Shown piece after piece: positions 2,877 to 42,039 of a DNA stretch of 64,000 nucleotides. Where the stretch lies: positions 1,902-65,901 of the forward strand of contig CAYQAW010000005.1 in the NCBI GenBank assembly GCA_964415615.1, in the 5' to 3' direction. A model generated the notes under the pieces. The model saw nothing but the letters and a program-made list of their open reading frames with translations. It was not told the DNA's origin and ran no database searches. Each line of letters starts with the position of its first letter. The first letter of the stretch is position 1. The DNA is from an uncultured Gammaproteobacteria bacterium (lineage in GTDB: Bacteria > Patescibacteriota > Microgenomatia > Daviesbacterales > UBA10151). A program made the translations under genes and the position numbers.

Positions 2877-3290
2877 ATGGTTAACATCATTGTAAATTCA
2901 GATCCAAGATATAATGTAAATAAAGATAGTATTAGAGAAATTATAGCTGAAACGCTAAGAAAACTTCATGTTTCTGGCAGGGTTGAGATAGGAGTAAATA
3001 TTGTAGGTGATAGGAAAATGCATGAACTAAACAGAAAGTTCAGAGGACTGGATTCTACCACTAATATTCTATCTTTTGCCTTGGAGGATACAACTCCTTC
3101 TAGTTTGCAGCATATTCCTAAAATTGGATTTGTGGCAGCCCCAGATAAATGGTTACGACTTGGGGATATTGTTATTTCCTATCCGCAAGCATTAGAAGAT
3201 GCTTCTATGGATGGAATCTCTGTTGATACAGAAATTAGGAATTTAGTGGAACATGGTTTAAATCACCTGTTAGGAATTCATCACAATTAA
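2877..3290 (+). CDS. ybeY: rRNA maturation endoribonuclease YbeY
   Basis: HGLNHLLGIHH (H-x3-H-x5-H zinc motif) at the C-terminus; 137 aa. Confidence 0.85.
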   Translation: MVNIIVNSDPRYNVNKDSIREIIAETLRKLHVSGRVEIGVNIVGDRKMHELNRKFRGLDSTTNILSFALEDTTPSSLQHIPKIGFVAAPDKWLRLGDIVISYPQALEDASMDGISVDTEIRNLVEHGLNHLLGIHHN

Positions 3291-4876
3291 TGTCTAATAT
3301 AGCCTTTTATTTAAAGTATCGTCCTCAAACTTTGGGAGAATTAGTAGGTCAAGAAGCTGTCAGAAAAACCCTTCTCTCATCTTTTCAAAATAGTAAGCTC
3401 TCACATGCTTATCTATTTGTAGGCCCAAGGGGAACTGGGAAAACCTCAACAGCTCGAATACTGGCCAAAATGGTCAATTGTGAGGGTAAGGGGGAAAGCG
3501 GAAAGGGTGAAGTTCCCTGTAATCAATGTTCAATCTGTGTTTCCATTACTGATGGATCTAATTTAGACCTTATTGAAATTGATGCTGCTTCAAACAGGGG
3601 TATAGAAGATATCAGGTCTTTAAGGGATAAAATCAAGCTTGCTCCCAGCAGTTGCAAAAAGAAGGTCTATATTATTGATGAAGTTCATATGTTAACTCCT
3701 GAGGCTTTTAATGCTTTACTTAAAACTTTGGAAGAACCACCCTCTCATGTTTTATTTATTTTAGCAACCACCGAAGTCACAAAAATCCCTCAGACAATTT
3801 TATCAAGAGCTCAAAAGTTAGATTTTAAACTGGCCACATCTTCAGAATTACTGGAAGCTTTAGAAAGAATTGTTAAAAAAGAAGACATAGATATAGATCA
3901 AGAGGCTTTAAAAGCCTTGGTTAAAAAATCAGATGGATCTTTTAGAGATGGAGTTAAGCTTCTGGATCAAGTAGCTTCTATTGGGGAGAAAATTACCACT
4001 TCCTTTATTGAAGAAAATCTTAAATCCTCACAATTTGAAAGTATTTTGAGTCTGATACAAGCTTTTAAAGATAAAAATGCTGCTGAAGGATTGCTTAATA
4101 TTAGCAAGCAACTGGAGAGTGGAGTTGATGCTAAACAATTAATTTTGTCTCTGATGGATACTTTTAGGAGTTTAGTTTTTATTAAAAATAATGTTGGTGA
4201 GCAGTTGGTAAAAAATGGTTTAATAGAAGATAAATATCAGCAGTTAGTAAAAATTTCTGAAGATTTATCTATATCTGATTTAACTGAAAGTCTAAATGCT
4301 TTGCAAAACGCTTTGGAGAAATTAAAATTTGCTTCAATCCCATCTTTGCCTTTGGAGCTGGCAGTTGTAGAGATTTGCGGAGAACAATTGTCACATAAGA
4401 CGATAGATGATGGAAAATTGAAGATAGTGATAGAAGATAGCAAGATAGAAGATAGAAAAGTAATCAATCTTCAATCATCCATAGTCAAAGATTCATCTTC
4501 TATCATCTATGATCAATCGTCTAGCAATGATATCCAAAAGCTTAAGGAAAAGTGGACCTTTGTCTTAGAAACAATCAGACCATATAATTTTTCCTTAGAA
4601 GCTCTACTTAGGAATGTGATAATTAAAGACTGTACTTCTAATGCTGTAATCATGGAGGTGCCTTATTCTTTTCACCAAAGAATTTTAGAATCTCCTAAAA
4701 ACAGAGATCTTTTGGAGTCAATTTTCTCAGATATTTTAGGAAGAAGTATTAAGGCATCTACAGTATTGGGATTCAGGCCAACCAGAAAAGAAGATATAGC
4801 AAATATAGAAATAGCCCAGGACGATGAAATCATCAGAGCAGCAGCAGAAATCTTCAACTCTGATACAGTCAATTAA
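3290..4876 (+). CDS. dnaX: DNA polymerase III subunit gamma/tau
   Basis: AAA+ Walker A LFVGPRGTGKTS. Zinc module NCE...PCNQCSICV. Followed downstream by ybaB and recR. Confidence 0.9.
   Translation: MSNIAFYLKYRPQTLGELVGQEAVRKTLLSSFQNSKLSHAYLFVGPRGTGKTSTARILAKMVNCEGKGESGKGEVPCNQCSICVSITDGSNLDLIEIDAASNRGIEDIRSLRDKIKLAPSSCKKKVYIIDEVHMLTPEAFNALLKTLEEPPSHVLFILATTEVTKIPQTILSRAQKLDFKLATSSELLEALERIVKKEDIDIDQEALKALVKKSDGSFRDGVKLLDQVASIGEKITTSFIEENLKSSQFESILSLIQAFKDKNAAEGLLNISKQLESGVDAKQLILSLMDTFRSLVFIKNNVGEQLVKNGLIEDKYQQLVKISEDLSISDLTESLNALQNALEKLKFASIPSLPLELAVVEICGEQLSHKTIDDGKLKIVIEDSKIEDRKVINLQSSIVKDSSSIIYDQSSSNDIQKLKEKWTFVLETIRPYNFSLEALLRNVIIKDCTSNAVIMEVPYSFHQRILESPKNRDLLESIFSDILGRSIKASTVLGFRPTRKEDIANIEIAQDDEIIRAAAEIFNSDTVN
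4844..4876 (+). repeat. Left copy of a 33-nt imperfect direct repeat (dnaX 3' end, 29/33 identical to 5579-5611)
   Basis: gcagaaatcttcaactctgatacagtcaattaa versus gcagaaatctttaattctgatacaataaattaa. Confidence 0.85.
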
Positions 4877-4937
4877 TTATAATAATACTATTGTCTTATT
4901 GATAATTAAATAGCAATGAGATACAATTGTTATTGAT

Positions 4938-5174
4938 ATGGAAACTCTGACTACTATTACTCCTAAATTCCAAGTTCATATTCCAGTTGCCATCCGCAAA
5001 AAAATTGGCCTGAAAAAACACGGAAGGGCTATCATCAGGGTAGAAAAGAAAAAAATTATTATTGAACCTATTAAGTCTGATTTTTTATCATTGGGAGGAA
5101 AGTTTAGAGTTAAAAATCCCATCCCTGCAGAGAAAATTAGAGATTACATCGATTATACTGAGGGACGATATTAA
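4938..5174 (+). CDS. AbrB/SpoVT-type antitoxin (VapB-like) of a type II TA pair
   Basis: 78 aa, swapped-hairpin-like N-terminus. Immediately precedes a PIN gene with a 5-nt gap. Confidence 0.6.
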   Translation: METLTTITPKFQVHIPVAIRKKIGLKKHGRAIIRVEKKKIIIEPIKSDFLSLGGKFRVKNPIPAEKIRDYIDYTEGRY

Positions 5175-5179
5175 TTTTT

Positions 5180-5611
5180 GTGGATAAGATATTTATAGAT
5201 ACAAGTATCTTTATCAGATTTTTGACTAAAGATATCCCAGAAAAATATGAGGAGTGTGAAAACCTTTTTAAGATTATCCAGAATGGGGAGGCTAAATCAT
5301 ATATTTCAAATTTTGTGATTTTTGAGATAGTATTTGTACTCACCCGCCAGTATAAATTTCCTAAGAAAAGAGTTTTGCAAATACTCGATCAAATACTCAA
5401 GATCCGTAATATCATAGTAATTGAACAGACTGATGTTACTAAAGCTGTGAAGTTTTACAATAAATACAATATCAAGTACGGAGATTGTGTTATCGCCACA
5501 CAAATTCCTAAAGGAGTTAGTATAGTTACTTATGACGCGGATTTTTCTAAAATACCTTCCTTAAAGTCCATCACACCCGCAGAAATCTTTAATTCTGATA
5601 CAATAAATTAA
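5180..5611 (+). CDS. PIN-domain ribonuclease toxin (VapC-like)
   Basis: N-terminal IFIDTSIFI (conserved PIN Asp); 143 aa. The last 11 codons lie in a direct repeat of the dnaX 3' end. Confidence 0.75.
   Translation: MDKIFIDTSIFIRFLTKDIPEKYEECENLFKIIQNGEAKSYISNFVIFEIVFVLTRQYKFPKKRVLQILDQILKIRNIIVIEQTDVTKAVKFYNKYNIKYGDCVIATQIPKGVSIVTYDADFSKIPSLKSITPAEIFNSDTIN
5579..5611 (+). repeat. Right copy of the 33-nt direct repeat; encodes the VapC C-terminus ...AEIFNSDTIN*
   Basis: Direct sequence comparison. Both copies end in TAA and encode EIFNSDT(V/I)N. Confidence 0.85.
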
Positions 5612-5661
5612 ATTTTCCTCCTTGAAAAGTAAGTAATAGTTTTTATATACTCTTTGCATTA

Positions 5662-6951
5662 ATGGTATCAAAGGTTTTTAAATTAATTGCAGAAGAAGCC
5701 CACAGACAAAAGTATGGCCTGGAGATGATCCCCTCAGAAAATTATGTTTCAGAAGACGTCTTAAAAGCCCTAGGTTCAATTTTGACTAATAAATACTCAG
5801 AAGGTTTTCCTGGCAGAAGATATTATGGTGGTAATGAAGTTATTGATAAAATTGAAAGCTATGCTTGTGAGTTGGCAAATAAACTTTTTGGTACCAAATA
5901 TGCTTTTGTTCAGCCCTATTCTGGTTCTCCTGCAAATCAAGCTGTGACTTTAGCAGTATGTGAACCAGGTGATGTAGTGATGGGATTATCACTTGCATCA
6001 GGTGGTCATTTAACTCATGGAGCAAAGCTGTCTTTTTCCAGCATTTTTTACAAAGCTGTAAATTATGAGGTTGGTAAAGATTGGAAAATAGATTATGAAC
6101 AGCTGGAAGCTTTAGCTAAAAAGCATAAACCAAAATTAATTTGGGCTGGAACTACGGCTTATCCTTTTAAGTTAGATTATAAAAAGTTTAGACAAATTGC
6201 AGATATGGTGGGAGCAACTTTGGTTGCAGACTGTTCTCATATTACAGGGTTGATAATTGGAGGGGTGCATCAATCACCAGTTCCATATGTTGATTTGATA
6301 ATGACTACTACCCATAAAACTTTAAGAGGCCCTAGGGGAGCAATTATTTTAGTTACCCAAAGAGGTTTCAAAAAAGATCCGGAAATAAAAGCCAAAATAG
6401 AAAGAGCAATTATTCCTGGTATTCAGGGGGGTCCACATAATCATCAAACTGCAGCTATTGCAGTGTGTTTGGAAGAAGCCTTAAAGCCATCATTTAAAAA
6501 GTATGCTGAACAAATTGCTAAGAATGCTGAGGTTTTAGCAAAAGAATTAGGAACTGTTTCCCAAACTCATCTAGTGCTTTTAAGTCTAACGGATTATGGA
6601 TATGGAATGGGTTATCAAGCGCAGTTCGCTTTAGAAGAAGCAGGAATTACTGTTAATAAAAATTCTATTCCAGGTGAACCAGCCTCTCCTTTTTATCCCT
6701 CAGGAATAAGATTAGGTACTCCAGCTTTAACTACAAGAGGAATGAAGGAAAAAGATATGGTCAAGATTGCGGGTTGGATTAAGAGGGTTTTAGAAGAAAT
6801 CAGGGGTTTAGACTTACCAAAAGAGCAAGATAGCAGGAAAGACTTTTTGAAGGAAGCAAAGGCAATTTTACGTAAAAATAAAAACTTAAAACAAGTAAGA
6901 ATTGAAGTAGAACAGTTTGCTGGTAAATTTCCAGTTCCAGGGATCAAATAA
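5662..6951 (+). CDS. glyA: Serine hydroxymethyltransferase
   Basis: PLP-lysine region TTTHKTLRGPRGAIIL; 429 aa. Confidence 0.9.
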   Translation: MVSKVFKLIAEEAHRQKYGLEMIPSENYVSEDVLKALGSILTNKYSEGFPGRRYYGGNEVIDKIESYACELANKLFGTKYAFVQPYSGSPANQAVTLAVCEPGDVVMGLSLASGGHLTHGAKLSFSSIFYKAVNYEVGKDWKIDYEQLEALAKKHKPKLIWAGTTAYPFKLDYKKFRQIADMVGATLVADCSHITGLIIGGVHQSPVPYVDLIMTTTHKTLRGPRGAIILVTQRGFKKDPEIKAKIERAIIPGIQGGPHNHQTAAIAVCLEEALKPSFKKYAEQIAKNAEVLAKELGTVSQTHLVLLSLTDYGYGMGYQAQFALEEAGITVNKNSIPGEPASPFYPSGIRLGTPALTTRGMKEKDMVKIAGWIKRVLEEIRGLDLPKEQDSRKDFLKEAKAILRKNKNLKQVRIEVEQFAGKFPVPGIK

Positions 6952-6952
6952 C

Positions 6953-7786
6953 ATGAAAGTATCTGGCAAAAAGGTTGCAGATATTATTGCCAAGAAACTC
7001 CAACAACAAGTACAATATTTAGAAGTTAAACCAGCCCTAGCTATAATTTTAGCAGGTGATAATCCAGCTTCCAGGATTTATGTTAATAATAAAATAATAA
7101 GGGCCCAAGAGGTAGGAGTTGAGGCTAGGCTTCTGGAATTTTCCCAAGACCAATTTGAGGATTGTTTAAAAACAATTGAGGATTTAAATTCTGATAAAAA
7201 TATTCATGGAATAATTATCCAGTATCCTACATATGAGGGTTGGGATTTTGATAAGTTACTTTCTAAAATTGATCCTAAAAAGGATGTTGATGGGTTTTTA
7301 CCAGACTCTCCTTTTTTTGGAGCTACAGCAGTAGGGGTGTGGGAAATGTTGACAGCTTTTGCCTATCAGGAAGGATTTAAAAAAACAGAAGATTTCTTGA
7401 AGGGTAAAAAGATTATTTTACTAGGTAGGGGTAAAACTGCTGGAAGGCCCACAAAGGAACTTTTAGAAAACAAGGGATTTGAGGTTGAAGTAGTTTCCAG
7501 AGAAACAGAAAATCCTGAAGAGGTAATAAAACAAGGAGATGTGGTAATTTCTGCAACAGGGGTAAAAAATATTATTAATAAATCTAACTTAAAAAGAGGA
7601 GTATATGTAATAGGAGTAGGTGTTGGGAAAGAGGTAATTGATGGTCAGTCAAAAATATATGGGGATATAAATGAGCAGGAAGTTGCAGAAGTAGCTAAAT
7701 TATATTGCCCAACCATTGGAGGTATAGGGCCATTAACAATTGTATCTCTTTTGGAAAATGTGATAAAATCAGCAAAAGGAGTTTAA
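6953..7786 (+). CDS. folD: Bifunctional methylene-THF dehydrogenase / methenyl-THF cyclohydrolase
   Basis: GRGKTAGRP and GGIGPLTIVSLLENV motifs. Start chosen at the internal ATG (MKVSGKK) to avoid overlapping glyA. Confidence 0.85.
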   Translation: MKVSGKKVADIIAKKLQQQVQYLEVKPALAIILAGDNPASRIYVNNKIIRAQEVGVEARLLEFSQDQFEDCLKTIEDLNSDKNIHGIIIQYPTYEGWDFDKLLSKIDPKKDVDGFLPDSPFFGATAVGVWEMLTAFAYQEGFKKTEDFLKGKKIILLGRGKTAGRPTKELLENKGFEVEVVSRETENPEEVIKQGDVVISATGVKNIINKSNLKRGVYVIGVGVGKEVIDGQSKIYGDINEQEVAEVAKLYCPTIGGIGPLTIVSLLENVIKSAKGV

Positions 7787-7790
7787 ATAT

Positions 7791-8069
7791 ATGGGGTTAA
7801 TGGATAATTTAAAACAGCTTGGGGATCTCAAGAAGATGAGAGATCAAGCTATGGAAGTACAAAAAAGACTGGCTGGCATTAAAATTACTGTGGAACATAG
7901 AGGTGTAACAGTAGTGATGACTGCTGATCAAAAAGTTGTTTCCATTTCTGGAGATAATGATTTGAATAAAGTTGCTGAAGCAGTTAATGAAGCCTTAAAA
8001 CAATCTCAAAAAGTAGCAGCAGATGAGATGAAACCAATGATGGGTGGCATGGGCATCCCAGGGATGTAA
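7791..8069 (+). CDS. ybaB: Nucleoid-associated protein YbaB/EbfC
   Basis: 92 aa. N-terminus MGLMDNLKQLGDLKKMRDQA...VTVVMTADQKVVSISGD is typical. Sits between dnaX and recR. Confidence 0.85.
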   Translation: MGLMDNLKQLGDLKKMRDQAMEVQKRLAGIKITVEHRGVTVVMTADQKVVSISGDNDLNKVAEAVNEALKQSQKVAADEMKPMMGGMGIPGM

Positions 8070-8092
8070 CTCCCTTATTTTTGTGCTAAAAT

Positions 8093-8698
8093 TTGACCAC
8101 AATGGCACATGTTCCCAAATCAGTTCAAAGTTTAATAGAAGCTTTTGAAAGGCTGCCTGGTATTGGTCCAAAAACAGCTCAAAGGCTAACTTATTATCTT
8201 CTTCATGCTCCTATTGAGGAAGCAAAAGCTTTAGCTGAGGCAGCTGTGGGAATGAAAGAAAAAACCAAGATTTGTTCTATTTGTTTCAATATTGGGGAGG
8301 AAGATCTCTGTCAAATTTGTTCTGATCCTAATAGAGAAAAGGAAGTCCTTGCTGTGGTAGAAAACCCTTTAGATGTTTTAGCTTTAGAAAAAGCAAATTT
8401 TAAGGGTCTTTACCATGTTTTACATGGAGTTATTTCACCTTTGGAAAATATTGGTCCTTCAGAAATTCATATCAGGGAGCTTTTGCCAAGACTTAAGGAT
8501 GGTAGTGTTAAGGAGATAATTTTAGCAACTAATCCAACCATGGAGGGAGAAGCTACTGCTATGTATATTCAGAGATTAATTGCTCCTTTGGGAGTTAAAG
8601 TTACCAGGATTGCGAGAGGTTTGCCAGTTGGATCAGATTTAGAGTATGCTGATGAGACAACATTATCCAGAGCATTGGAGGGTAGGAAAGAATACTAG
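8093..8698 (+). CDS. recR: Recombination protein RecR
   Basis: HhH LPGIGPKTAQRL, C4 zinc finger CSIC...CQIC, Toprim domain. Confidence 0.9.
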   Translation: MTTMAHVPKSVQSLIEAFERLPGIGPKTAQRLTYYLLHAPIEEAKALAEAAVGMKEKTKICSICFNIGEEDLCQICSDPNREKEVLAVVENPLDVLALEKANFKGLYHVLHGVISPLENIGPSEIHIRELLPRLKDGSVKEIILATNPTMEGEATAMYIQRLIAPLGVKVTRIARGLPVGSDLEYADETTLSRALEGRKEY

Positions 8699-8699
8699 T

Positions 8700-9104
8700 A
8701 TGAAAGTTATTGGACAATTTAAAGATGAGATAGAAGATACAGCAGGTGAAGTTGCGCAAGATGTGAAAGACTCAGTAGGAGAGGCTATTGAACAAGGGAT
8801 TCAATCTGTAACTGCACCACAACTTACTCCTCAGCAAATGCAACAAAAACAACAGGAAGATCAAAAAAAAGAAATTGATAGACAAAAACAGATAGCTTAT
8901 ACCAGGAATTGGCTGGGTAATCTACAAATGGTCCAGCAAAAAGTCAGGCAGGAAAATAAACAAAAAGAAGAACAACGGTTACAAGCCCAGCAACAAGAAG
9001 AACAAGTTGCTGAAATGGAAGAAAAACAAGAAAAAGAAAAGCCAATTCATCCTGCTATAGCTTATGCTGGTAAAATAGAGATTAAAAGAGGAGTAGGAGG
9101 ATGA
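8700..9104 (+). CDS. Hypothetical Q/E/K-rich coiled-coil protein
   Basis: ATG at 8700 directly after the recR stop. Low complexity (QQMQQKQQEDQKKE...); no recognisable domain. Confidence 0.4.
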   Translation: MKVIGQFKDEIEDTAGEVAQDVKDSVGEAIEQGIQSVTAPQLTPQQMQQKQQEDQKKEIDRQKQIAYTRNWLGNLQMVQQKVRQENKQKEEQRLQAQQQEEQVAEMEEKQEKEKPIHPAIAYAGKIEIKRGVGG

Positions 9105-10504
9105 GAATTTATAACACACTAACCAAAAAAGTAGAGGACCTTATTCCTTTAAATCCCCCAAAGGTGGGAATGTACGCCTGTGGTCCGACAGTTTATGATT
9201 ACTCCCACATTGGGCATTTAAGAAAATATGTAAGTGATGATATTTTAAGAAGAGTTTTGGAAAACAGTGGTTATGAAGTTAAGCATGTGATGAATATTAC
9301 TGATGTTGGACACTTGGTTTCTGATGAAGACTCTGGTGAGGATAAGATGGAAAAAGGAGCAAGGGAATCTGGGAGGACTGTTTGGGAAGTGGCTAAGTTT
9401 TATGAAGATTATTTTTGGAAATCAGTAGATACTGTAAATACAAAAAGACCAAGTATAGTTGCCAAAGCCACAGATCATATTGAAGAACAAGTTAAGTTAA
9501 TCCAAAAACTAGAAAAAAATGGGTTTATTTATCAAACAGATCAGGCAATTTATTTTGATATTTCCAAATTTCCTAATTACACCAAATTATCTGGACAAAA
9601 ATTAGAAGAAAAAGAAATTGGAGCAAGAGAAGATGTAGTCATAGATAAACAAAAGAAAAGTCCAGTGGACTTTGCCCTGTGGTTTTTTACTGTTGGGCAT
9701 TTTGAGGGCCATAGCATGAGATGGCCTTCTCCTTGGGGTGAAGGATTTCCTGGTTGGCACATAGAGTGTTCTGCTATGAGTATGGAATACTTGGGGGATT
9801 CTTTTGAAGTCCATACAGGAGGAATAGATCATATTCCTGTTCATCATACCAATGAGATTGCCCAATCTGAGGCAGCTACAGGAAAACCCTTTGTTAAATA
9901 TTGGGTTCATCATAATTTCTTAATAGTAGATGGAGAAAAAATGTCCAAGTCCAAGAAGAATTTTTATAGAATTGATGAGATTATAGAGAAAGGTTTTGAT
10001 CCTTTGGCTTTAAGATATTTATTTCTAACAGCTCACTACAGAGATAAATTAAATTTTACCTGGGAATCTTTACAAGCTGCCCAAAATGCTTTGAATAACT
10101 TAAGGGAAACTGTCAGGAATTGGGAGCAGCCAAAGATTGGTTGTGCTCAATTTGAGCAGGATTTTACAGCAGCAATAAACAATGATTTAAATACCCCACA
10201 AGCACTAGCAGTTTTATGGGAACTAGTTAAGAGTGACTATCCAACTTCAGCTAAAGCCAAAACTATTTTAGAAATGGATAAAATTTTAGGGCTAAAATTA
10301 GATGAATATTTAGACAAAAAGATAGAAGTTCCAGAAGAGGTACAAGAGCTTGTTAACCAAAGAGAAAAGGTAAGAAAATCAGGAGACTTTAAAGCCTCAG
10401 ATGAGCTGCGTCATCAAATCAAAAAGCTAGGATATGAAATAGAAGACACTCCAACTGGACCAAAAATTAAAGGTTTAGTTGATATAAGACTCCTTCCGTG
10501 TTAA
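9101..10504 (+). CDS. cysS: Cysteinyl-tRNA synthetase
   Basis: HIGH motif (SHIGHLR), KMSKS, zinc-binding Cys near N-terminus (CGPTVYD); 467 aa. Confidence 0.9.
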   Translation: MRIYNTLTKKVEDLIPLNPPKVGMYACGPTVYDYSHIGHLRKYVSDDILRRVLENSGYEVKHVMNITDVGHLVSDEDSGEDKMEKGARESGRTVWEVAKFYEDYFWKSVDTVNTKRPSIVAKATDHIEEQVKLIQKLEKNGFIYQTDQAIYFDISKFPNYTKLSGQKLEEKEIGAREDVVIDKQKKSPVDFALWFFTVGHFEGHSMRWPSPWGEGFPGWHIECSAMSMEYLGDSFEVHTGGIDHIPVHHTNEIAQSEAATGKPFVKYWVHHNFLIVDGEKMSKSKKNFYRIDEIIEKGFDPLALRYLFLTAHYRDKLNFTWESLQAAQNALNNLRETVRNWEQPKIGCAQFEQDFTAAINNDLNTPQALAVLWELVKSDYPTSAKAKTILEMDKILGLKLDEYLDKKIEVPEEVQELVNQREKVRKSGDFKASDELRHQIKKLGYEIEDTPTGPKIKGLVDIRLLPC

Positions 10505-20356: not shown

Positions 20357-21105
20357 TAAAACCTAAAGTTCTAGTTTTAAAAGCAGATGGGACAAATAGG
20401 GATGAAGAAATGGCTTTTGCTTTTAAAGTTGCTGGAGCAAATCCACAAATAGTCCATATCAATGAATTAAGAGAAAATAAACAAAGCTTGGAAAATTTTC
20501 AGATACTCGCTCTACCAGGAGGTTTTGCTTATGGGGATGATATTGTCTCAGGAAAGATTTTAGCAATAGAGTTGACTTCATTTTTAGGTAAAGAGATGAA
20601 AAAATTTATAGAAAGGAAAGATACAGCAATTATTGGAGTTTGTAATGGGTTTCAGGTTTTGGTAAGAACAGGGCTTTTACCATTTAGGAAAATAGGAGAG
20701 ATGGATGTAACGCTGACCAATAATGACTCAGGACATTTTGAATGCAGATGGGTAAAAGTAAAAGTTAATAAAAATAATAATTCTAAATTATTAAAAGGAA
20801 TGGATGAAAAGATTTTATGGTTTCCCATAGCTCATGGGGAAGGCAAATTTTTTACAGATCAAAAAACTTTAAAAGAAGTAGAGGATAAAAATTTAGTGGC
20901 ATTTAGGTATATGGATAATCCAAATGGTTCTTTAAATGATATAGTTGGGATAACTGATCCAACAGGTAGAATCCTGGGAATGATGCCGCATCCAGAATGT
21001 TTTATAAGGGCAGAGCAGCATCCAAACTTTAGGCGTGGTAAAGTAGAGATAGATGGTTTACCTATTTTTGAAAATATAGTAAATCTTGTGAAAGGAAAAC
21101 TATGA
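20353..21105 (+). CDS. purQ: FGAM synthase glutamine amidotransferase subunit
   Basis: GVCNGFQVL catalytic Cys; HPE near the C-terminus. ATGA overlap with the purL stop. Confidence 0.85.
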   Translation: MIKPKVLVLKADGTNRDEEMAFAFKVAGANPQIVHINELRENKQSLENFQILALPGGFAYGDDIVSGKILAIELTSFLGKEMKKFIERKDTAIIGVCNGFQVLVRTGLLPFRKIGEMDVTLTNNDSGHFECRWVKVKVNKNNNSKLLKGMDEKILWFPIAHGEGKFFTDQKTLKEVEDKNLVAFRYMDNPNGSLNDIVGITDPTGRILGMMPHPECFIRAEQHPNFRRGKVEIDGLPIFENIVNLVKGKL

Positions 21106-22634
21106 TAATACTTATAGATTTTGGGTCACAAACAACACATTTAATATTAAGAAGAATTAGGGAACTTGGGGTAGAAGTTTTAATTACTATTCCTGAGTTG
21201 GCTCTACAAAAAATTGAAGAAGTAAATCCTAAAGGAATTATATTATCAGGTGGTCCTGCATCAGTCTATGAAAAAGACTCTCCTATAATTGATCCAAAGA
21301 TTTTTAAAATAGGCATTCCGGTTTTAGGAATTTGTTATGGACAACAGTTAATGTGCCACCTATTAGGAGGAGAAGTAAAAGCAGGATATAAAAAGGAATA
21401 TGGACCAGCTGAGCTAAGGATAAAGGGTGAAGGGGAAAGGGGGAAGCTATTGGAGGGTATACCAAGTGGGATTACTGTGTGGATGAGTCATGGAGATGAG
21501 GTGGTAAAGATACCAGAGGGCTTTGAAACTGTTGCAACAACTAAAACAATTCCTCATGCAGCAATAGAAAATAAAAAAGAAAAACTTTATGGAATTCAGT
21601 TTCACCCAGAAGTAGTCCATACTGAGCATGGGGGAGAGCTTTTAGAAAACTTCCTGAAAATTTGTGGGTTAGCTATTACAAAACAAGAAATAAACAAAGA
21701 ATTTGTGGATGGTCTTATCAAAGATATAAAAGATTCTGCTTTAGAGGATAAAGCAATTTGTGCTCTGTCTGGAGGGGTGGATTCTTCTGTGGCAGCACTT
21801 TTAGTCTATAAAGCAATTGGCAAAAATCTAGCATCTTTTTATATAAACTCAGGATTGATGAGAGAAAACGAGACAGAGACTTTGAGGGAAGTTTTTAAAA
21901 ATGATTATGATATGGATATAGAAATTATTGAAGCAAAGCATGAATTTTTAAAAAGCTTAAAAGGAGTTACTGACCCAGAGCAGAAAAGAAAAGCAATTGG
22001 TAAAACTTTTATAGAAAGTTTTGATATTGCTGCTAAAAAAACTGGAGCAAAGTTTTTAGTACAGGGGACAATTTATCCAGATGTGATTGAGTCTGCAGGC
22101 AGTAAGTATTCTCAGGTAATAAAATCTCATCATAATGTTGGAGGGCTGCCTGAAAATATGAATTTGGTATTACTTGAGCCTTTGAGGAATTTTTATAAAG
22201 ATGAGGTAAAAAAGATAGGTAAGATTTTAGGTCTGCCAGATAAAATTTTAAACAGGCAGCCTTTTCCAGGTCCAGGACTTGCTGTCAGAATTATTGGGGA
22301 AGTAACAGAAAATAAGTTAGAAATTTTAAGAAAAGCAGATAAAATTGTTCAAGAGGAAATTCAAAAAACAAAGTTAGAAGGAAGTCTTTGGCAAGTATTT
22401 GCTGTATTTACTGGGATCAAGACAACAGGGGTCAGAGGTGATGAGAGGGCATATGGAGAAACTATTGCCATAAGAGCCATTGAAGCCCAGGATGCTATGT
22501 CTGCCAATTTTGCCAAACTGCCTTATGAGGTTTTAGAAAAAATCAGTTTAAGAATTGTCACAGAAGTACCAGAAGTAAACAGAGTTGTTTATGATATTAC
22601 CAATAAACCCCCAGCCACTATGGAATGGGAATAA
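21102..22634 (+). CDS. guaA: GMP synthase (glutamine-hydrolysing)
   Basis: GATase domain (GICYGQQL), PP-loop SGGVDSSV, C-terminal dimerisation domain ...ATMEWE*. Confidence 0.9.
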   Translation: MIILIDFGSQTTHLILRRIRELGVEVLITIPELALQKIEEVNPKGIILSGGPASVYEKDSPIIDPKIFKIGIPVLGICYGQQLMCHLLGGEVKAGYKKEYGPAELRIKGEGERGKLLEGIPSGITVWMSHGDEVVKIPEGFETVATTKTIPHAAIENKKEKLYGIQFHPEVVHTEHGGELLENFLKICGLAITKQEINKEFVDGLIKDIKDSALEDKAICALSGGVDSSVAALLVYKAIGKNLASFYINSGLMRENETETLREVFKNDYDMDIEIIEAKHEFLKSLKGVTDPEQKRKAIGKTFIESFDIAAKKTGAKFLVQGTIYPDVIESAGSKYSQVIKSHHNVGGLPENMNLVLLEPLRNFYKDEVKKIGKILGLPDKILNRQPFPGPGLAVRIIGEVTENKLEILRKADKIVQEEIQKTKLEGSLWQVFAVFTGIKTTGVRGDERAYGETIAIRAIEAQDAMSANFAKLPYEVLEKISLRIVTEVPEVNRVVYDITNKPPATMEWE

Positions 22635-22636
22635 AA
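22599..22636 (+). repeat. Left copy of a 38-nt direct repeat (guaA 3' end, 35/38 identical to 23190-23227)
   Basis: accaataaacccccagccactatggaatgggaataaaa versus accaacaaacccccagttactatggaatgggaataaaa. Confidence 0.85.
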
Positions 22637-22640
22637 ATAA

Positions 22641-22898
22641 ATGGATACAAAAATCATTCGCGAAAAAATTATTAAAAGTGAATTTGATCTTTCAGAACAT
22701 GCGCATAAGGAACGCCAGATCGAACAAATAACTATCAAAGAGATAGAGCAAACTATTTTAGAAAATGATATAATTGAAAAGTATCCAAAAGATCCAAGAG
22801 GTCCAAGTTGTCTAATTGGAAACGCTAGTTTGCACGTTGTTTGTGGATTCAGAAATGCTAGACTGCTTGTAGTTACAGTCTACCCTACCGACCAGTAA
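22641..22898 (+). CDS. DUF4258-family protein (putative toxin of a DUF4258 / YgiT-zinc-finger type II TA pair)
   Basis: 85 aa. Basic C-terminal ...VVCGFRNARLLVVTVYPTD. Gene pairing with a YgiT-type zinc-finger partner. Confidence 0.55.
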   Translation: MDTKIIREKIIKSEFDLSEHAHKERQIEQITIKEIEQTILENDIIEKYPKDPRGPSCLIGNASLHVVCGFRNARLLVVTVYPTDQ

Positions 22899-22946
22899 CC
22901 CCAACTTGGAAGGATTATAAAACAAGAGTAAAGGAGTTAAAAAGCC

Positions 22947-23183
22947 GTGTCTAAATGTTATTTTTGTGGGGGGAATACTCAAATAAAAAAGATTGATATA
23001 GACTTCAGATGGGGAGATAAACTTTATGTGATTCAAAAAGTTCCCGTAGAAGTTTGTACCAGATGTGGTGAAAGATATTATTCTGCCAAGGTATCTCATA
23101 AGATCGATAAAATAGTTCAAGAAAGCTCTAAGACTAAAAAGCCTAAAAGGATTATTGAAGTTCCTGTTTTTAACTTTGCCTAG
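22947..23183 (+). CDS. YgiT-type zinc-finger protein (MqsA-like N-terminal zinc ribbon; putative antitoxin)
   Basis: CYFCGG...x22...CTRCGERY zinc-ribbon pattern typical of YgiT/MqsA N-domains; 78 aa. Confidence 0.6.
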   Translation: MSKCYFCGGNTQIKKIDIDFRWGDKLYVIQKVPVEVCTRCGERYYSAKVSHKIDKIVQESSKTKKPKRIIEVPVFNFA

Positions 23184-23189
23184 AATTTC

Positions 23190-23227
23190 ACCAACAAACC
23201 CCCAGTTACTATGGAATGGGAATAAAA
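23190..23227 (+). repeat. Right copy of the 38-nt direct repeat; non-coding, abutting the purA stop
   Basis: Direct sequence comparison. Confidence 0.85.
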
Positions 23228-25582
<2,355 letters not shown>

Positions 25583-26674
25583 ATGAATAAACCACAAATA
25601 ACAATAGTAGTATTGGGTAGCCATTCCGCACTGGATGTATGCCGTGGCGCTAAAGATGAAGGTTTTAATACTTTAGTTATTGTTCAAAAGGGTAGAGATA
25701 AAACATATGCAAAGTACTTTAAAACTCAAGGTGAGGTTGGTTGTGTTGATGAGGTTATAGAACTGGAAAAATTTGTTGATATTTTAAAGCCAGAAGTTCA
25801 AGAACAATTATTAAAAAGAAATGCTATATTTGTTCCTCATAGATCTTTTGAAGTTTATATTAACGATTACAATGCAATTGAAAAAAAGTTTAAAGTACAA
25901 ATGTTTGGCAACAGATTTTTACTTAAGTCAGAAGAAAGAGGAGTAAAACCCAATCAATATGATTTATTGGATGAGGCAAAGATCCGTTATCCTAAACAAT
26001 TCAAGGATCCAAAAGAAATAGATAGGCTTTGTATAGTAAAAGTATTGGAAAAGATGAGAGGGTTTGAGAGAGCGTTTTTCTTTGCATCCTCTTTTGAAGA
26101 GTATCAAGCAGGAATAACCCATGGACTGGGTTTAGGGAAGTTTACAGAAGAACAAGTAAAAAATGCAGTGATAGAAGAGTTTATAGTGGGAGTTCAGGTT
26201 AATTTTAATTTCTTTTATTCACCAATTAACAAAAGAGTTGAATTAATAGGTACTGATACTAGAAGACAAACAAATATAGAGGGTTTAACTAAATTACCTT
26301 CCATTTACGAGCAGGAGTTAATGAAGAAAATAGAAGTAAAGTATGAAGAAGCAGGACATATTGCAGTAACAGTTTTAGAATCGTTGCTTGAAGATGCTTA
26401 TGCTTTGGGAGAAAGATTTGTTGAGGCTTCACAAAAATTATATATACCTGGTGTAATAGGCCCATTTGGTTTGCAAACTATGATAACAGCAGGTCCTCCT
26501 AAAAAAGAAATAATTGTTTTTGATGTGTCTCCCAGAATGCCAGGATCCCCTGGAATATTTGCTACTCCTTATAGCGGGTATTTGTATGGTAAAAATATTA
26601 GTATGGGAAAAAGGGTAGCAATGGAAATAAGATATGCTTTAGAAAAAGGAGAAATAGAAAAAGTACTAACATGA
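25583..26674 (+). CDS. PurP-like ATP-grasp protein, copy 2 (tandem paralogue)
   Basis: LGSHSALDVCRGAKDEGF. Collinear similarity to the upstream ORF (for example FFYSP, GPF.L.T.I). Confidence 0.6.
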   Translation: MNKPQITIVVLGSHSALDVCRGAKDEGFNTLVIVQKGRDKTYAKYFKTQGEVGCVDEVIELEKFVDILKPEVQEQLLKRNAIFVPHRSFEVYINDYNAIEKKFKVQMFGNRFLLKSEERGVKPNQYDLLDEAKIRYPKQFKDPKEIDRLCIVKVLEKMRGFERAFFFASSFEEYQAGITHGLGLGKFTEEQVKNAVIEEFIVGVQVNFNFFYSPINKRVELIGTDTRRQTNIEGLTKLPSIYEQELMKKIEVKYEEAGHIAVTVLESLLEDAYALGERFVEASQKLYIPGVIGPFGLQTMITAGPPKKEIIVFDVSPRMPGSPGIFATPYSGYLYGKNISMGKRVAMEIRYALEKGEIEKVLT

Positions 26675-39027: not shown

Positions 39028-41391
39028 ATGCCCCAAAAGTACACTTTACTTTTTGAAGAAGTAAATATTGATGATGTTACTGAAGTAGGTGGTAAAAATG
39101 CTTCTTTAGGGGAGATGATCCAGCAGTTAAAGGATATTAGAATTCCTAGCGGATTCGTAGTGACTGCTACTGCGTATAAACAGTTCCTTGCAGAAACAGG
39201 ACTTGATAAGTATATTAGCGAACAGCTAAAAGATCTAAATACTAGAAATTTAAAAGACTTACAAATAAAGGGTAAAAACATTAGAGAAAAGATTATTAGT
39301 ACTTCTTTTCCTGATGAGTTAAATCAAGCAATCCAATCTGCTTTCGAGGCAACTGAAAAAAGATATGGCAAAGGAGCAGATTTTGCAGTCAGGTCTTCTG
39401 CTACAGCTGAAGATTTGCCAGAAGCTTCATTTGCAGGAGAGCATGAAACTTATTTAAACATTAGAGGGTTGGAAAATATTTTGAGAGCCATTAAAGCAGC
39501 AATGGCTTCACTTTTTACCAATAGGGCTATATCTTACAGGGTAGATAAAGGATTTAATCATTTGAAGGTTTATCTATCTGTGGGAGTACAAAAAATGGCC
39601 AGATCAGATTTAGGTTGTTCTGGAGTAATGTTTTCTCTGGATACTGAAACAGGTTTTTCTAATGTGGTATTAATCAATTCTTCCTGGGGTTTAGGAGAGA
39701 TGATAGTTCAGGGTGAGGTTACTCCTGATGAGTTTTTAGTCTTTAAAAAAACTGCTACCATTATTGATAAAAAATTAGGAGTTAAGAATAAGAAAATGAT
39801 TTATGGAAGTGATGCTCCTACAAAAATTGTGCAAACTTCAGAAAAAGAAAAACAAACACTTACTCTTTCAGATAAAGAAATTCTAACACTTGCCAGATGG
39901 GCTATGAAAATTGAAGATCATTACAGCAAGAAAAAAGGCAAATGGACACCTATGGATATGGAGTGGGCAAAGGATGGTATTGATAATAGACTCTATATTA
40001 TCCAAGCCAGGCCTGAAACTATTCATGCAGTCAGGGATTTATCTAAGCTTAAAGAATATATATTAGAAGAAACTGGAGAAAAAATAGTAAGTGGCGCATC
40101 AGTGGGAAGCAAGATTGCAACAGGTAGGGCAAGAATTATCTTTGATCCCAAAGATATTGAGGAATTCAAAGAAGGGGAAGTTTTAATTACTAAAATGACA
40201 GATCCTGATTGGGAGCCAATTATGAAGATTGCTTCAGCAATTGTTACTGATCAAGGAGGAAGGACTTCACATGCAGCAATAGTTTCAAGGGAACTGGGGA
40301 TTCCAGCAATTGTTGGTTGTATTGATGCCACAACTAAAATTAAAAACGGACAGGATTTAACTGTTGATTGCTCCCAGGATTTAGGTACAGTTTATAAAGG
40401 CAAATTAAAGTTTAAAATTGTCGAGCACGATACTAAAAATATTCCTCAAACAAAAACTCATATTATGATGAATATTGCAACACCTCAGACAGCTTTTGAA
40501 AAATCTTTTTTACCAAATGAAGGGGTAGGACTTGCCAGGGAAGAATTTATTATTACCTCAGAAATTGGGATTCATCCTCTGGCTTTAATAAATTATGAAA
40601 AATTACCAAAACTGCTACAGAAAAAAATTGATAAAGTTACTGTTGGGTATTCTGATAAAAAGCAATTTTATGTTGATAGATTAGCTTACGGTGTTGCTAA
40701 AATCTCAGCTGCTTTTTTCCCAAATCCAGTTATTGTCCGTTTTTCTGATTTTAAAACTAATGAATACAGATCACTTTTAGGAGGATATTTATTTGAGCCA
40801 AATGAAGAAAATCCTATGATTGGTTGGAGAGGGGCCTCTAGATATTATTCTCCAGATTTTGCTCCTGCTTTTGTATTAGAGCTTGAAGCTATTAAAAAGG
40901 TAATTGGAGAAATGAGTTTAACAAATACTGTAGTGATGGTGCCTTTTTGCAGGACTCCAGAAGAAGGTAAAAAAGTTTTAGATTTGATGGAAAAAAATGG
41001 AGTTTCAAAAAAAGAGTTTAAAGATTTAAAAGTTTATGTGATGTGTGAAATTCCTGCTAATGTAATAATTGCTGATGAGTTTTTGCAAGTGTTTGATGGG
41101 ATGAGTATTGGCAGCAATGATTTAACACAGCTTACTTTAGGTATTGATAGGGATGGAAATGAAAAAATAAAAGGCATCTCTAATGAAAATGATCCAGCTG
41201 TTAAAGAATTAATCAGGCAGGTAATCAAGAAATGTAAAGCAAAAGGAAAATATATAGGTATCTGTGGTCAAGCCCCTTCTGATTATCCAGACTTTGTAAA
41301 GTTTTTGGTAGAAGAAGGTATAGATAGTATGTCTTTAAATCCTGACTCCATCATTAAAACTATACTTGCTGTGCATAAATTGGAATCTTGA
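39028..41391 (+). CDS. ppsA: Phosphoenolpyruvate synthase (pyruvate, water dikinase)
   Basis: Phospho-His domain GGRTSHAAIVSRELGIPAIVG, PEP-utilising C-terminal domain; 787 aa. Confidence 0.9.
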   Translation: MPQKYTLLFEEVNIDDVTEVGGKNASLGEMIQQLKDIRIPSGFVVTATAYKQFLAETGLDKYISEQLKDLNTRNLKDLQIKGKNIREKIISTSFPDELNQAIQSAFEATEKRYGKGADFAVRSSATAEDLPEASFAGEHETYLNIRGLENILRAIKAAMASLFTNRAISYRVDKGFNHLKVYLSVGVQKMARSDLGCSGVMFSLDTETGFSNVVLINSSWGLGEMIVQGEVTPDEFLVFKKTATIIDKKLGVKNKKMIYGSDAPTKIVQTSEKEKQTLTLSDKEILTLARWAMKIEDHYSKKKGKWTPMDMEWAKDGIDNRLYIIQARPETIHAVRDLSKLKEYILEETGEKIVSGASVGSKIATGRARIIFDPKDIEEFKEGEVLITKMTDPDWEPIMKIASAIVTDQGGRTSHAAIVSRELGIPAIVGCIDATTKIKNGQDLTVDCSQDLGTVYKGKLKFKIVEHDTKNIPQTKTHIMMNIATPQTAFEKSFLPNEGVGLAREEFIITSEIGIHPLALINYEKLPKLLQKKIDKVTVGYSDKKQFYVDRLAYGVAKISAAFFPNPVIVRFSDFKTNEYRSLLGGYLFEPNEENPMIGWRGASRYYSPDFAPAFVLELEAIKKVIGEMSLTNTVVMVPFCRTPEEGKKVLDLMEKNGVSKKEFKDLKVYVMCEIPANVIIADEFLQVFDGMSIGSNDLTQLTLGIDRDGNEKIKGISNENDPAVKELIRQVIKKCKAKGKYIGICGQAPSDYPDFVKFLVEEGIDSMSLNPDSIIKTILAVHKLES

Positions 41392-41417
41392 CAATGTAAT
41401 ACAAATGTAATACAATA
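41392..41417 (+). repeat. Tandem 12-mer (aatgtaatacaa x2) in the brnT promoter region; putative operator
   Basis: caATGTAATACAAATGTAATACAAtatt, seen directly in the sequence. Confidence 0.5.
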
Positions 41418-41696
41418 TTGACCAGAATAGTAATTAGAAAATTGATTTGGGATGATTGGAATGTTGAACATATTAAGAAGCATAATGTTATACAGTCTGA
41501 AGTCGAGGAAGTAGCTAAAAATATTGTAACTCATCGGAAATCTAAGCTAGGTAGATATCTAATAATTGGGAGAAGTGGTTCAAGAATAATATCTGTAGCT
41601 ATTAGTAGAAAAGAAATTGGAGTTTACTATCCAGTTACAGCAAGAGATTCAGCCAGAAAAGAAAGGAGGCTAGTGTATGAAAAAGAAAAAATTTAA
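41418..41696 (+). CDS. brnT: BrnT-like (DUF497) ribonuclease toxin
   Basis: LIWDDWNVEHIKKHNV matches the BrnT F-x-WD-x-x-N-x-x-H-I-x-x-H-G-V signature; 92 aa. Confidence 0.7.
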   Translation: MTRIVIRKLIWDDWNVEHIKKHNVIQSEVEEVAKNIVTHRKSKLGRYLIIGRSGSRIISVAISRKEIGVYYPVTARDSARKERRLVYEKEKI

Positions 41697-41952
41697 ATTT
41701 CCTGATTTTAATAAAATGACTTATGAAGAAGAAGCAAATTGGTGGGATACCCATGATTGGGGAGAGTTTTGGGATGAACTTGAGGAAGTTGATATAGTAG
41801 TGGATCTCCACAAGCCTAAAGATGAAACTATCATAGTGAGGTTGCAAAAACAATTTAAGGATAAACTGGCAAAAGTTGCTAAATCAAAGGGTTTAAATAT
41901 GTCTGCCTTGGCGCGTCTGTGGTTAATGGAAAAACTCCAATCCAGCCACTAA
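41677..41952 (+). CDS. brnA: BrnA-like antitoxin
   Basis: Overlaps brnT by 20 nt. C-terminal RHH-like ...VRLQKQFKDKLAKVAKSKGLNMSALARLWLME. Confidence 0.65.
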   Translation: MKKKKFKFPDFNKMTYEEEANWWDTHDWGEFWDELEEVDIVVDLHKPKDETIIVRLQKQFKDKLAKVAKSKGLNMSALARLWLMEKLQSSH

Positions 41953-41957
41953 GACTT

Positions 41958-41982
41958 TACCAATTTGTAACGATCGGTCAAT
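41958..41982 (-). repeat. Inverted third copy of the TTGAC(C)GATCGTTACAAAT motif, adjacent to the palindromic tttagctaaa
   Basis: Reverse complement attgaccgatcgttacaaattggta versus cttgacgatcgttacaaataagta at 31688-31711. Confidence 0.55.
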
Positions 41983-42039
41983 TTAGCTAAAGTTCAATCT
42001 GTTCAAGAATATATATCCTATTCTACATACCATTGACTT

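Follow-up and report, generated by a model that had tools for sequence, protein, structure and literature searches.

A toxin-antitoxin-like gene pair between duplicated guaA tails in a Patescibacteria contig, and related cassettes at other gene 3' ends

Background

To our knowledge, the movement of toxin-antitoxin (TA) modules among chromosomes outside plasmids, phages and transposons is poorly understood. Patescibacteria, in turn, are generally considered to contain few mobile elements and defence genes. In the 64-kb stretch of Daviesbacteria (CPR) DNA analysed here (the window), two small genes that resemble a TA pair lie between the convergent genes guaA and purA, with a second copy of the guaA 3' end on their far side. 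The locus raises the question of how such a pair came to be there and which unit of DNA was moved. A first-pass annotation had proposed an insertion at the 3' end of guaA, regarded as a classic genomic island site. Here we present a comparative analysis of this locus and its relatives.

The guaA-purA locus

The features discussed are collected in Table 1. The guaA product ends in ...TNKPPATMEWE* (asterisks denote stops), and the gene terminates in a 38-nt tract that comprises its final 11 codons, the TAA stop at 22632-22634 and two further nucleotides (copy 1, ACCAATAAACCCCCAGCCACTATGGAATGGGAATAAAA). As the first-pass annotation had noticed, this tract recurs downstream with 35 of 38 positions identical (copy 2, ACCAACAAACCCCCAGTTACTATGGAATGGGAATAAAA); the second copy starts 6 nt past the antitoxin stop, and its last base, 23227, abuts the purA stop codon (minus strand, 23228-23230). 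In the repeat search the pair could be extended to 55 nt at 82% identity. The guaA-tail pattern with at most 3 mismatches matched exactly two sites in the window and was absent from 100 dinucleotide-preserving shuffles of it; a chance repeat is ruled out by this result and by the reverse-complement control for gene tails described below (0 of 902). The 553 nt between the copies hold exactly two small open reading frames (ORFs), at 22641-22898 and 22947-23183, both belonging to the TA pair.

Several common types of mobile DNA were considered. A tRNA-linked island is ruled out by the lack of any tRNA gene in the 64-kb window, and a compositional island by GC content and skew that are unremarkable over 22.6-23.2 kb. 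No integrase domain was found in the approximately 50 window ORFs scanned, and the repeats are gene tails, which speaks against an integron. A DNA transposon or IS was rejected since no terminal inverted repeats could be seen at either end of the guaA cassette and the duplications, at 35-80 nt, are not of fixed length; the inverted-repeat search covered the dnaX and 41000-43200 regions, and the guaA cassette ends were judged by eye.

Table 1. Positions of the cassettes, their target genes and the repeat copies in the window
Feature	Position	Strand	Evidence
dnaX (DNA polymerase III gamma/tau; target of the second cassette; tail 4839-4876)	3290..4876	+	Pfam DNA_pol3_delta2 and others; repeat
Second cassette: MazE/AbrB-type antitoxin and PIN toxin	4938..5611	+	Pfam; repeat; sequence
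guaA (GMP synthase, 510 aa; cassette target, intact)	21102..22634	+	Pfam GATase 1.1e-46, GMP_synt_C 1e-38; ORF list
Direct repeat copy 1, functional guaA tail	22599..22636	+	Sequence, repeat search, pattern search
DUF4258 (RelE/MqsR-like) toxin gene, frameshifted	22641..22954	+	Pfam DUF4258 E=1.5e-16; relatives' length; alternative frame
CTACC-CTACC, 5-nt tandem duplication, cause of the toxin frameshift	22880..22889	+	Comparison with intact L090 and L098; protein alignment
Zinc-ribbon antitoxin candidate (78 aa)	22947..23183	+	Pfam MqsA_antitoxin E=1.4e-5; sequence
Direct repeat copy 2, displaced guaA-tail relic (TNKPPVTMEWE*)	23190..23227	+	Sequence, pattern search
purA (adenylosuccinate synthetase, 425 aa; convergent with guaA)	23228..24505	-	Pfam Adenylsucc_synt 5.8e-176

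The toxin and antitoxin genes

The proposed assignment of the first gene to DUF4258, a family whose function is given as 'Unknown' (PMC11980606), is upheld by its Pfam match, with the qualification that the ORF is cut by a frameshift. As it stands, the ORF encodes 85 aa ending in PTDQ*, versus 102 aa for the intact toxin in 47 relatives. The CTACC duplication costs the toxin its conserved final 21 residues, and the conserved C-terminus YRPVTPTWKDYKTRVKELKSRV* is encoded in another frame at 22880-22954. The guaA cassette lacks the intact toxin ORF of a type II TA module, and the loss of these residues indicates that it is decaying, although the frameshift rests on one assembly because no independent assembly is on record for the 85-aa toxin.

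The antitoxin candidate combines a CxxC...CxxC motif with a Lys-rich tail and has no HTH. It matches positions 2-61 of the 131 in the MqsA_antitoxin profile with 25.7 bits, under the 30-bit cut-off. Of the annotated YgiT/MqsA-type identity, the resemblance to the N-terminal zinc-ribbon domain of MqsA holds, and the C-terminal HTH-XRE domain is absent. Read in the intact frame, the toxin gene precedes the antitoxin gene, whose GTG start overlaps the toxin stop (GTGTCTAA); this suggests that the adjacent small gene is translationally coupled to the toxin gene. The toxin/zinc-ribbon pair is present in 63 of 80 related loci. An AlphaFold model of an intact toxin relative (P0002, pLDDT 88) was compared with the PDB by Foldseek and resembled HigB2, MqsR (TM 0.61-0.67, probability 1.0), RelE and YoeB, all with E >0.01, MqsR being the best match by TM-score; the toxin is thus predicted to have a RelE/MqsR-type BECR fold. 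PDB sequence searches with the toxin and the antitoxin gave no meaningful match. The TA-like identity is supported by the Pfam matches, the gene order and overlap, and the predicted fold of the intact relative.

A gap of 6 nt separates the guaA stop from the toxin gene. A promoter scan gave promoter-like matches no more often than shuffles, with none 5' of the toxin gene, and no terminator-like site was found at the cassette, which speaks against a promoter or terminator of its own. Given the short gap, the lack of a promoter and an antitoxin without a DNA-binding domain, the cassette would be transcribed by read-through from guaA; we infer both this co-transcription and toxin activity.

The guaA site in related genomes

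The first-pass annotation had suggested a search for an insert-less guaA-purA junction in relatives, and such an empty site was found in three Daviesbacteria (L002, L004 and L012), which are other species rather than strains of the same one (GuaA 72-77% identical to that of the window). In these genomes guaA and purA are convergent, with stops 0-2 nt apart, and only one tail is present. The pair was thus inserted between the two genes, and the sequence flanking the insert as direct repeats >30 bp (38 nt) is single-copy at the empty site. The alternative set out in advance as the refuting case, in which copy 2 belongs to a conserved purA 3' UTR, is ruled out by the single tail of these relatives.

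Other genomes carry cassettes at the same site. Those of L090, L098, L178 and L180 belong to the window family. In other CPR genomes the cargo differs: L024 has a DUF4258/zinc-ribbon pair with a toxin that is just 39% identical; L019 has AbrB/PIN followed by Phd, and L015 has AbiEi/AbiEii followed by BrnT-like/CopG, each with three tail copies. The guaA relic starts at about -27 to -39 from the stop (mode -33), alike in unrelated TA families. The junctions of the window, L090, L098, L178 and L180 are homologous, which makes a single ancestral guaA event plausible. Under such a scenario the host tail would have been duplicated in a one-off insertion, whether through staggered-break repair, through template switching or in the manner of a transposase. 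The cassette would since have passed down vertically, now and then being lost precisely, and would no longer be mobile. The empty sites could then be precise deletions between the repeats, and the perfect 53-nt repeat core in L091 is also in line with this scenario. However, the window GuaA is closer to those of the empty-site genomes (77%) than to that of L090 (74%), and the comparison of silent sites given below adds further evidence against it.

Cassettes at other gene tails

The annotated second cassette with the same arrangement was confirmed at dnaX. The dnaX tail is repeated at 5574-5611 (84% of 38 nt), and the copies enclose a MazE/AbrB-type gene (4938-5174) and a PIN gene (5180-5611). 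The PIN ORF terminates within the relic, its end PAEIFNSDTIN* corresponding to AAEIFNSDTVN* in dnaX. Two further TA modules of the window (41418-41952 and 42040-42608) have no flanking gene-tail repeats.

In other genomes the DUF4258 cassette family is found at the 3' ends of uvrB, polA, purA, a dinB-like gene and others, so that this one family occupies at least seven unrelated gene tails. The duplicated tails are 35-80 nt long (uvrB, 76 nt; a gene for 264 aa, 78 nt; polA, 45-78 nt; the dinB-like gene, 80 nt; purA, about 48-60 nt). Flanking repeats with a score of at least 39 were detected in 13 of 56 testable loci and in none of 56 controls. When 902 ORF tails from the window and 80 loci were each compared with their own 3-kb downstream region, eight scored at least 38, versus none in the reverse-complement control. 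The flanking repeats of L159, L140, L127, L143, L146 and L149 in the metagenome set, which are repetitive or of low complexity and are not gene tails, were left out of the cases. Most cassettes end 2-14 nt from the repeats, which leaves no space for cis sites; longer one-sided spacers occur in L019, L091, L100, L160 and L179. No integrase was found in any cassette or among the window ORFs tested, and no motif common to the target gene tails was evident by eye.

These results bear on the annotation of the guaA 3' end as an island site, of which the gene-tail direct repeats stand and the classical island does not, because an integrase is lacking. TA modules resist deletion, and the pair could be what persists, through addiction, of a larger island that encoded an integrase and lost all its genes except the TA pair between attL and attR. 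The guaA gene is indeed a known island site (PMC4701971). However, random decay would rarely leave genes 2-14 nt from the repeats in most independent cases, and the 80 GuaA loci examined, in which domain tests were applied to some of the downstream ORFs, showed no integrase-bearing guaA-tail island of larger size. We consider such a remnant very improbable.

The moving unit

Comparison of L090 and L098 delimits the unit that moved. Their third-codon-position identity is 0.74 in the cassette and 0.47 in guaA codons -13 to -111, and their right flanks are unrelated; the comparison draws on 180 codons of cassette sequence from MAGs or contigs. With cassette silent sites far less diverged than the adjacent guaA, and with differing right neighbours, the unit is the cassette together with one copy of the tail. 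The relics are hybrid in composition: their left and middle parts carry AAC/ACT/GTY states common across genomes, whereas the right end (GAR TGG GAR) matches the tail of the host (GAG..GAG in both copies of L178, GAA..GAA in the window). In 12 tail/relic pairs, several of which share ancestry, the differences are distributed as 17/14/62 over codon positions 1/2/3 (P=5e-11 versus a uniform spread, P=5e-5 versus self-duplication and neutral decay). This third-position excess indicates that tail and relic diverged as coding tails in different genomes.

Both the silent sites and the third-position excess are at odds with the one-off insertion outlined above, which predicts neutral decay of the relic. 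Taken together with repeat lengths that vary, unlike transposase duplications, and with the lack of terminal inverted repeats, they make that explanation improbable.

Proposed mechanism of integration

The reading that we favour, to which we give an even chance, is that of a minimal recombinase-less type II TA cassette integrated by recombination within the conserved guaA tail. The mobile unit would consist of two genes plus one copy of the tail of the target gene, and would integrate within roughly the final 36 nt of guaA. Campbell-type recombination inside the tail, as in 'insertion-duplication', would restore an intact guaA beside the cassette, while the opposite side, which here borders purA, would retain a further tail copy of hybrid make-up. 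The GuaA C-terminus (KPPATMEWE*) hardly varies, so the guaA tail would be a portable attachment site in many genomes, and tandem arrays would arise by repeated insertion at the functional tail copy.

For the route and the enzyme of recombination, we infer that the most likely agent would be host recombination, which would act through short homology once DNA has been taken up and need no dedicated enzyme; Patescibacteria have been reported with competence and recombination genes (PMC12455944). Reaching a gene tail for the first time would take a less frequent, illegitimate event in which that tail is duplicated or displaced, and the host-recombination model does not explain how a cassette gains the tail of a new gene. 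Homology-facilitated illegitimate recombination with a long guaA anchor is disfavoured for the guaA clade, since the guaA codons beside the tail are at saturation and the cassette is not; it may account for first arrivals, such as that at purA in L179 (tails only 72% identical).

Two observations count against host recombination: i) perfect identity between the repeat copies, which are 72-92% identical overall, extends over only 11-20 nt, short for RecA-type recombination if the differences predate integration, and ii) the near-constant boundary of the guaA relic, shared by different TA families, looks like a defined att site. Alternatively, the cassettes may be cis-mobilizable and depend on a site-specific (tyrosine) recombinase whose gene lies at another genomic locus or on a co-resident element, the guaA tail being attB and the copies attL and attR. 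Such an enzyme would tolerate repeat mismatches better than RecA; the direct repeats are exactly the 3' end of the target gene, as in streptococcal guaA ICEs (PMC4701971), the make-up of the relics is hybrid and attR-like, and tandem accretion is observed. Yet neither the cassettes nor the tested window ORFs encode an integrase, the tails share no motif evident by eye, and the occurrence at so many unrelated tails, with repeats of such different length, would require many recombinases or very loose specificity. Moreover, viral contigs in IMG/VR contain neither the guaA-tail pattern nor a toxin relative, a result that also led us to reject a phage or plasmid carrier. We regard a recombinase acting in trans as rather unlikely.

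Relation to known systems

Nobusato et al. in 2000 reportedly described 'insertion with long target duplication' for restriction-modification (RM) gene complexes. This process is the closest precedent for the guaA cassette (Furuta, Abe & Kobayashi 2010, PMC2853133): RM systems that lack mobility genes had entered genomes with target duplications that are long and differ in length, for the most part in species with natural competence. In both cases a small addiction-type unit without mobility genes (in the window 553 nt, under the 20-kb criterion) is flanked by direct repeats >30 bp that are single-copy at the empty site and may overlap a gene 3' end. Repeat length varies in both, from 45-47 bp up to about 400 bp for RM insertions and within 35-80 nt for the TA cassettes. 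The differences are the cargo, a TA pair in place of RM genes; the hosts, which are CPR/Patescibacteria; repeats that are consistently gene 3' ends, with copies diverged in a coding-like manner rather than near-identical; and the reuse of the guaA site by several TA families, which builds tandem arrays.

Site-specific integration at guaA offers a second comparison. CIMEs are recombinase-less derivatives of site-specific integrative elements. Streptococcal ICEs integrate at the guaA 3' end with direct repeats of 12-54 bp (PMC4701971). ICEs and CIMEs of this type resemble the TA cassette in that the guaA 3' end is targeted, the direct repeats contain the gene end, the gene stays intact and tandem accretion is possible. 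Unlike the guaA ICEs, the cassette is shorter than 0.6 kb, lacks integrase, relaxase and conjugation genes, and its relatives occupy many unrelated gene tails; with two ORFs only between the repeats, it does not encode the integrase or recombinase by which an ICE, IME or island is recognised.

In Rhs, CDI and T6SS effector-immunity loci (Jackson et al. 2009; Kirchberger et al. 2017, PMC5361080), as here, a new 3' end with one or more downstream genes displaces the old 3' end, and arrays result from successive events. There, however, a functional toxin domain is displaced and the system includes the anchor gene, whereas here a housekeeping tail of 36-80 nt is displaced and the adjacent guaA body is not co-transferred. 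At the protein level the pair resembles E. coli MqsR/MqsA (PDB 3hi2) in having the toxin gene first, a predicted MqsR-like fold and an N-terminal CxxC...CxxC zinc ribbon, and differs in that the toxin belongs to Pfam DUF4258 instead of MqsR and the antitoxin has no C-terminal HTH domain.

Conclusions

This work adds to the initial description of the locus the toxin frameshift, the empty sites, the reuse of guaA by other TA cargo, the cassettes at other gene tails and the bounds of the moving unit. The window and its related loci provide a concrete, testable architecture for the movement of TA modules. For annotation, short 'extra' gene tails beside small gene pairs mark recent insertions in MAGs. 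If host recombination is the sole agent, the little-studied 'insertion with long target duplication' would extend beyond RM to TA genes and reach into a major radiation that is still uncultivated; should a hidden recombinase act instead, the tandem arrays show where to search for it. More broadly, and only tentatively, conserved gene tails may be the attachment sites of an integrase-free system of two-gene TA (possibly also other defence) cassettes in CPR/Patescibacteria, each carrying one housekeeping-gene tail of 35-80 nt, entering by recombination within it, stacking at hot spots such as guaA and spreading across species independently of their flanks. Such a system, if real, would functionally be an integron without an integrase, and would give a general account of how TA modules colonise streamlined genomes.

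Insertion of a toxin-antitoxin cassette between guaA and purA

The first-pass annotation had claimed that the 3' end of guaA is duplicated around a toxin-antitoxin (TA)-like pair, and the duplication is real: a guaA-tail pattern allowing up to three mismatches occurs at only two sites in the window and in none of 100 shuffles, and exactly two ORFs separate the copies. The window belongs to contig JACPAI010000005.1 of GCA_016180885.1, a Candidatus Daviesbacteria MAG (Microgenomates, CPR). In a set of 80 GuaA loci drawn from GTDB species representatives, three Daviesbacteria (L002, L004 and L012) carry a single tail copy, and their guaA and purA stops are separated by 0-2 nt. The insertion reading therefore survives the alternative raised by the annotation itself, that the downstream copy is a conserved purA 3' UTR, and the window cassette is an insertion between the two genes.

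Features of the window discussed in the text
Feature	Position	Strand	Description
Second cassette	4839-5611		MazE/AbrB-type and PIN pair between dnaX-tail copies
guaA	21102-22634	+	convergent with purA
guaA tail copy 1	22599-22636 (38 nt)		last 11 guaA codons, stop and two further bases
DUF4258 ORF	22641-22898		between tail copies; Pfam DUF4258, E=1.5e-16
Zinc-ribbon ORF	22947-23183		between tail copies; CxxC...CxxC; MqsA profile
guaA tail copy 2 (relic)	23190-23227		35/38 identity to copy 1; ends one base before purA stop
purA	23228-24505	-	convergent with guaA
PurP paralogue 1	24566-25582		Pfam
PurP paralogue 2	25583-26674		precomputed annotation
TA module	41418-41952		BrnT-like/CopG-like
TA module	42040-42608		Phd and PIN_3 gene with internal deletion

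The toxin has 47 database relatives, all of them 100-132 aa in length (most commonly 102) and ending in ...YRPKxPxWIDYKTRAKELKSRV. The window toxin ends early, at 85 aa, and its lost C-terminus is found in another frame (22880-22954), with a stop overlapping the antitoxin GTG. The frameshift, seen in a single assembly, is caused by a 5-nt tandem duplication (CTACC-CTACC, 22880-22889) and probably leaves the toxin inactive. In Foldseek, the AlphaFold model for an intact relative (pLDDT 88) matches RelE-superfamily toxins with weak E-values, the best TM-scores (0.61-0.67) being to MqsR; DUF4258 is listed as a putative TA toxin family of the RelE/ParE superfamily, and fusions of DUF4258 with MqsA are also on record (PMC11980606). 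For the antitoxin, the match to the MqsA profile covers just the profile's N-terminal half and scores under the curated cut-off. Since the antitoxin lacks an HTH domain, only 6 nt separate the guaA stop from the toxin start and a promoter scan found no promoter-like site for the toxin, the cassette is probably expressed by read-through from guaA. The window has no tRNA gene, no integrase turned up in the cassettes or among the roughly 50 window ORFs profiled, and reading the ends of the window cassette revealed no terminal inverted repeat. The original reading of the locus stands with three additions: a broken toxin, an antitoxin that is a bare zinc ribbon, and an element without a recombinase.

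Other features of the window

A second cassette with a gene-tail duplication, also reported earlier, is indeed present: a copy of the dnaX tail (4839-4876) lies at 5574-5611 (84%). This relic supplies the C-terminal end of the PIN ORF, to which it is fused in frame, and the joint falls within the toxin gene or at its end. Two further TA modules lie between the gene for a PEP-utilising enzyme (39028-41391) and an ORF whose N-terminal sequence suggests enolase; no gene-tail repeats were detected flanking them. A Fic/DOC-domain gene (338 aa, 52819-53835, minus strand), convergent with ychF, is possibly another toxin-type gene. ORF 48503-49042 contains a 67-nt direct repeat (48734-48800 and 48893-48959, 78% identical, 159 nt apart), which is a repeated protein segment.

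The usual description of CPR bacteria is that they do not synthesise nucleotides de novo, and the large purine-biosynthesis cluster at 14223-34956 is unusual for a member of this group. It comprises purF-like, fused purN/purD, purL, purQ, guaA, purA, purH, purB, purC, prs and purM-like genes, together with two tandem archaeal-type PurP paralogues (DUF1246/DUF1297).

Recurrence at guaA and at other gene ends

In other CPR genomes of the GuaA set, small inserts at guaA are followed by one further guaA tail, or in some cases two. L024 carries a DUF4258/zinc-ribbon pair with two tail copies, its toxin just 39% identical to the window subfamily; three copies accompany AbrB/PIN followed by Phd in L019, and AbiEi/AbiEii followed by BrnT-like/CopG in L015. 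The relic starts at a similar point in all three, about 27-39 nt before the stop (mode 33). A downstream tail copy was found for 8 of 902 scanned ORF tails (control, 0).

Other arrangements were also seen. In L003 (Daviesbacteria, 5724-9341), the place of purA after guaA is taken by genes for an IS-type DDE transposase (rve) and a reverse transcriptase, and a 24-nt repeat occurs at ~7464-7487, in the 3'-terminal part of ORF 6762-7508, and at 7941-7964. In L056 (SAR324 MAG, 4530-5790), a duplication of the guaA tail together with the next ~45 nt downstream surrounds a 1.2-kb insert with an apparent minus-strand coding region, read by eye; the repeat runs beyond the stop codon, and L056 shows the same type of event outside CPR. 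L077 (Acidobacteriaceae MAG, 658-1530) has a 47-nt copy of a 216-aa ORF tail ~180 nt downstream of that ORF, a possible small insertion with tail duplication.

Cassettes with toxins 60-81% identical to the window toxin occur in several settings. They follow guaA at four loci (L090, L098, L178 and L180), with junctions homologous to the window's. They also lie antisense at the ends of uvrB (76-nt repeat) and a 264-aa gene (78 nt), and after polA (45-78 nt), a dinB-like gene (80 nt) and purA (about 48-60 nt, 72% identical). Flanking direct repeats scoring at least 39, some of them not gene tails, occur in 13 of the 56 metagenomic cassette loci for which two flanks were available (control, 0); the cassette-to-repeat distance is 2-14 nt in most cases. 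The 77-nt spacer between the uvrB and antitoxin stops of L091 (4539-4615) holds two GC-rich palindromes (ccccgagactagtctcgggg-like and ccacctaagaggtgg), which may act as bidirectional terminators imported with the cassette. Most target genes of the family belong to nucleotide or DNA metabolism (guaA, purA, uvrB, polA and a dinB-like gene, with L015, L019 and L179 among the loci concerned), as does dnaX, the target of the PIN cassette; this bias may be a real preference or else sampling chance.

The mobile unit and its mode of integration

The cassettes at the guaA site form one clade. In the comparison of L090 with L098, the cassette has a third-position identity of 0.74, against 0.47 for guaA codons -13 to -111, the saturation level of all Daviesbacteria pairs; the DNA right of the relic shows no relatedness, and the window GuaA is nearer to empty-site genomes than to L090. 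These sequence comparisons show that the repeat-bounded unit moved between guaA loci without its flanks. Relics travel with the cassette, since they have the derived states AAC, ACT and GTY in common across genomes, and their right end agrees with the tail of the host itself (GAG..GAG for the two copies in L178, GAA..GAA for the two in the window), the make-up that an attR-like hybrid should have. Pooled over 12 tail/relic pairs, 17, 14 and 62 differences occur at codon positions 1, 2 and 3, respectively (P=5e-11 against a uniform spread), and the third-position excess indicates that the copies diverged mostly as real coding tails in different genomes. A one-off self-duplication, vertically inherited since, is unlikely, as neutral relic decay after such an event fits this distribution poorly (P=5e-5); decay of a larger island, also a poorer fit, is very improbable.

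The best-supported reading is that a cassette with one tail copy would integrate by recombination inside the target gene's tail. As the agent we favour, at about even odds, host recombination on short homology following DNA uptake, because many unrelated tails are used, repeat lengths vary, there is no room for cis sites, and restriction-modification (RM) genes offer a precedent: without mobility genes, they insert with long target duplications of variable length, mainly in bacteria that are competent (PMC2853133). The main rival, an unlinked site-specific recombinase, is possible at lower probability; it would account for the nearly constant relic boundary at guaA, the mismatches between tail copies and the likeness of the duplicated tails to the direct repeats of ICEs in guaA (PMC4701971). 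For the first acquisition of a new gene's tail, homology-facilitated illegitimate recombination is a candidate route; it has been put forward for T6SS effector-immunity arrays (PMC5361080). By itself the guaA-purA locus is a modest case; its value is that it reveals a recurrent, little-described way for TA cassettes to settle at the ends of genes in CPR bacteria.
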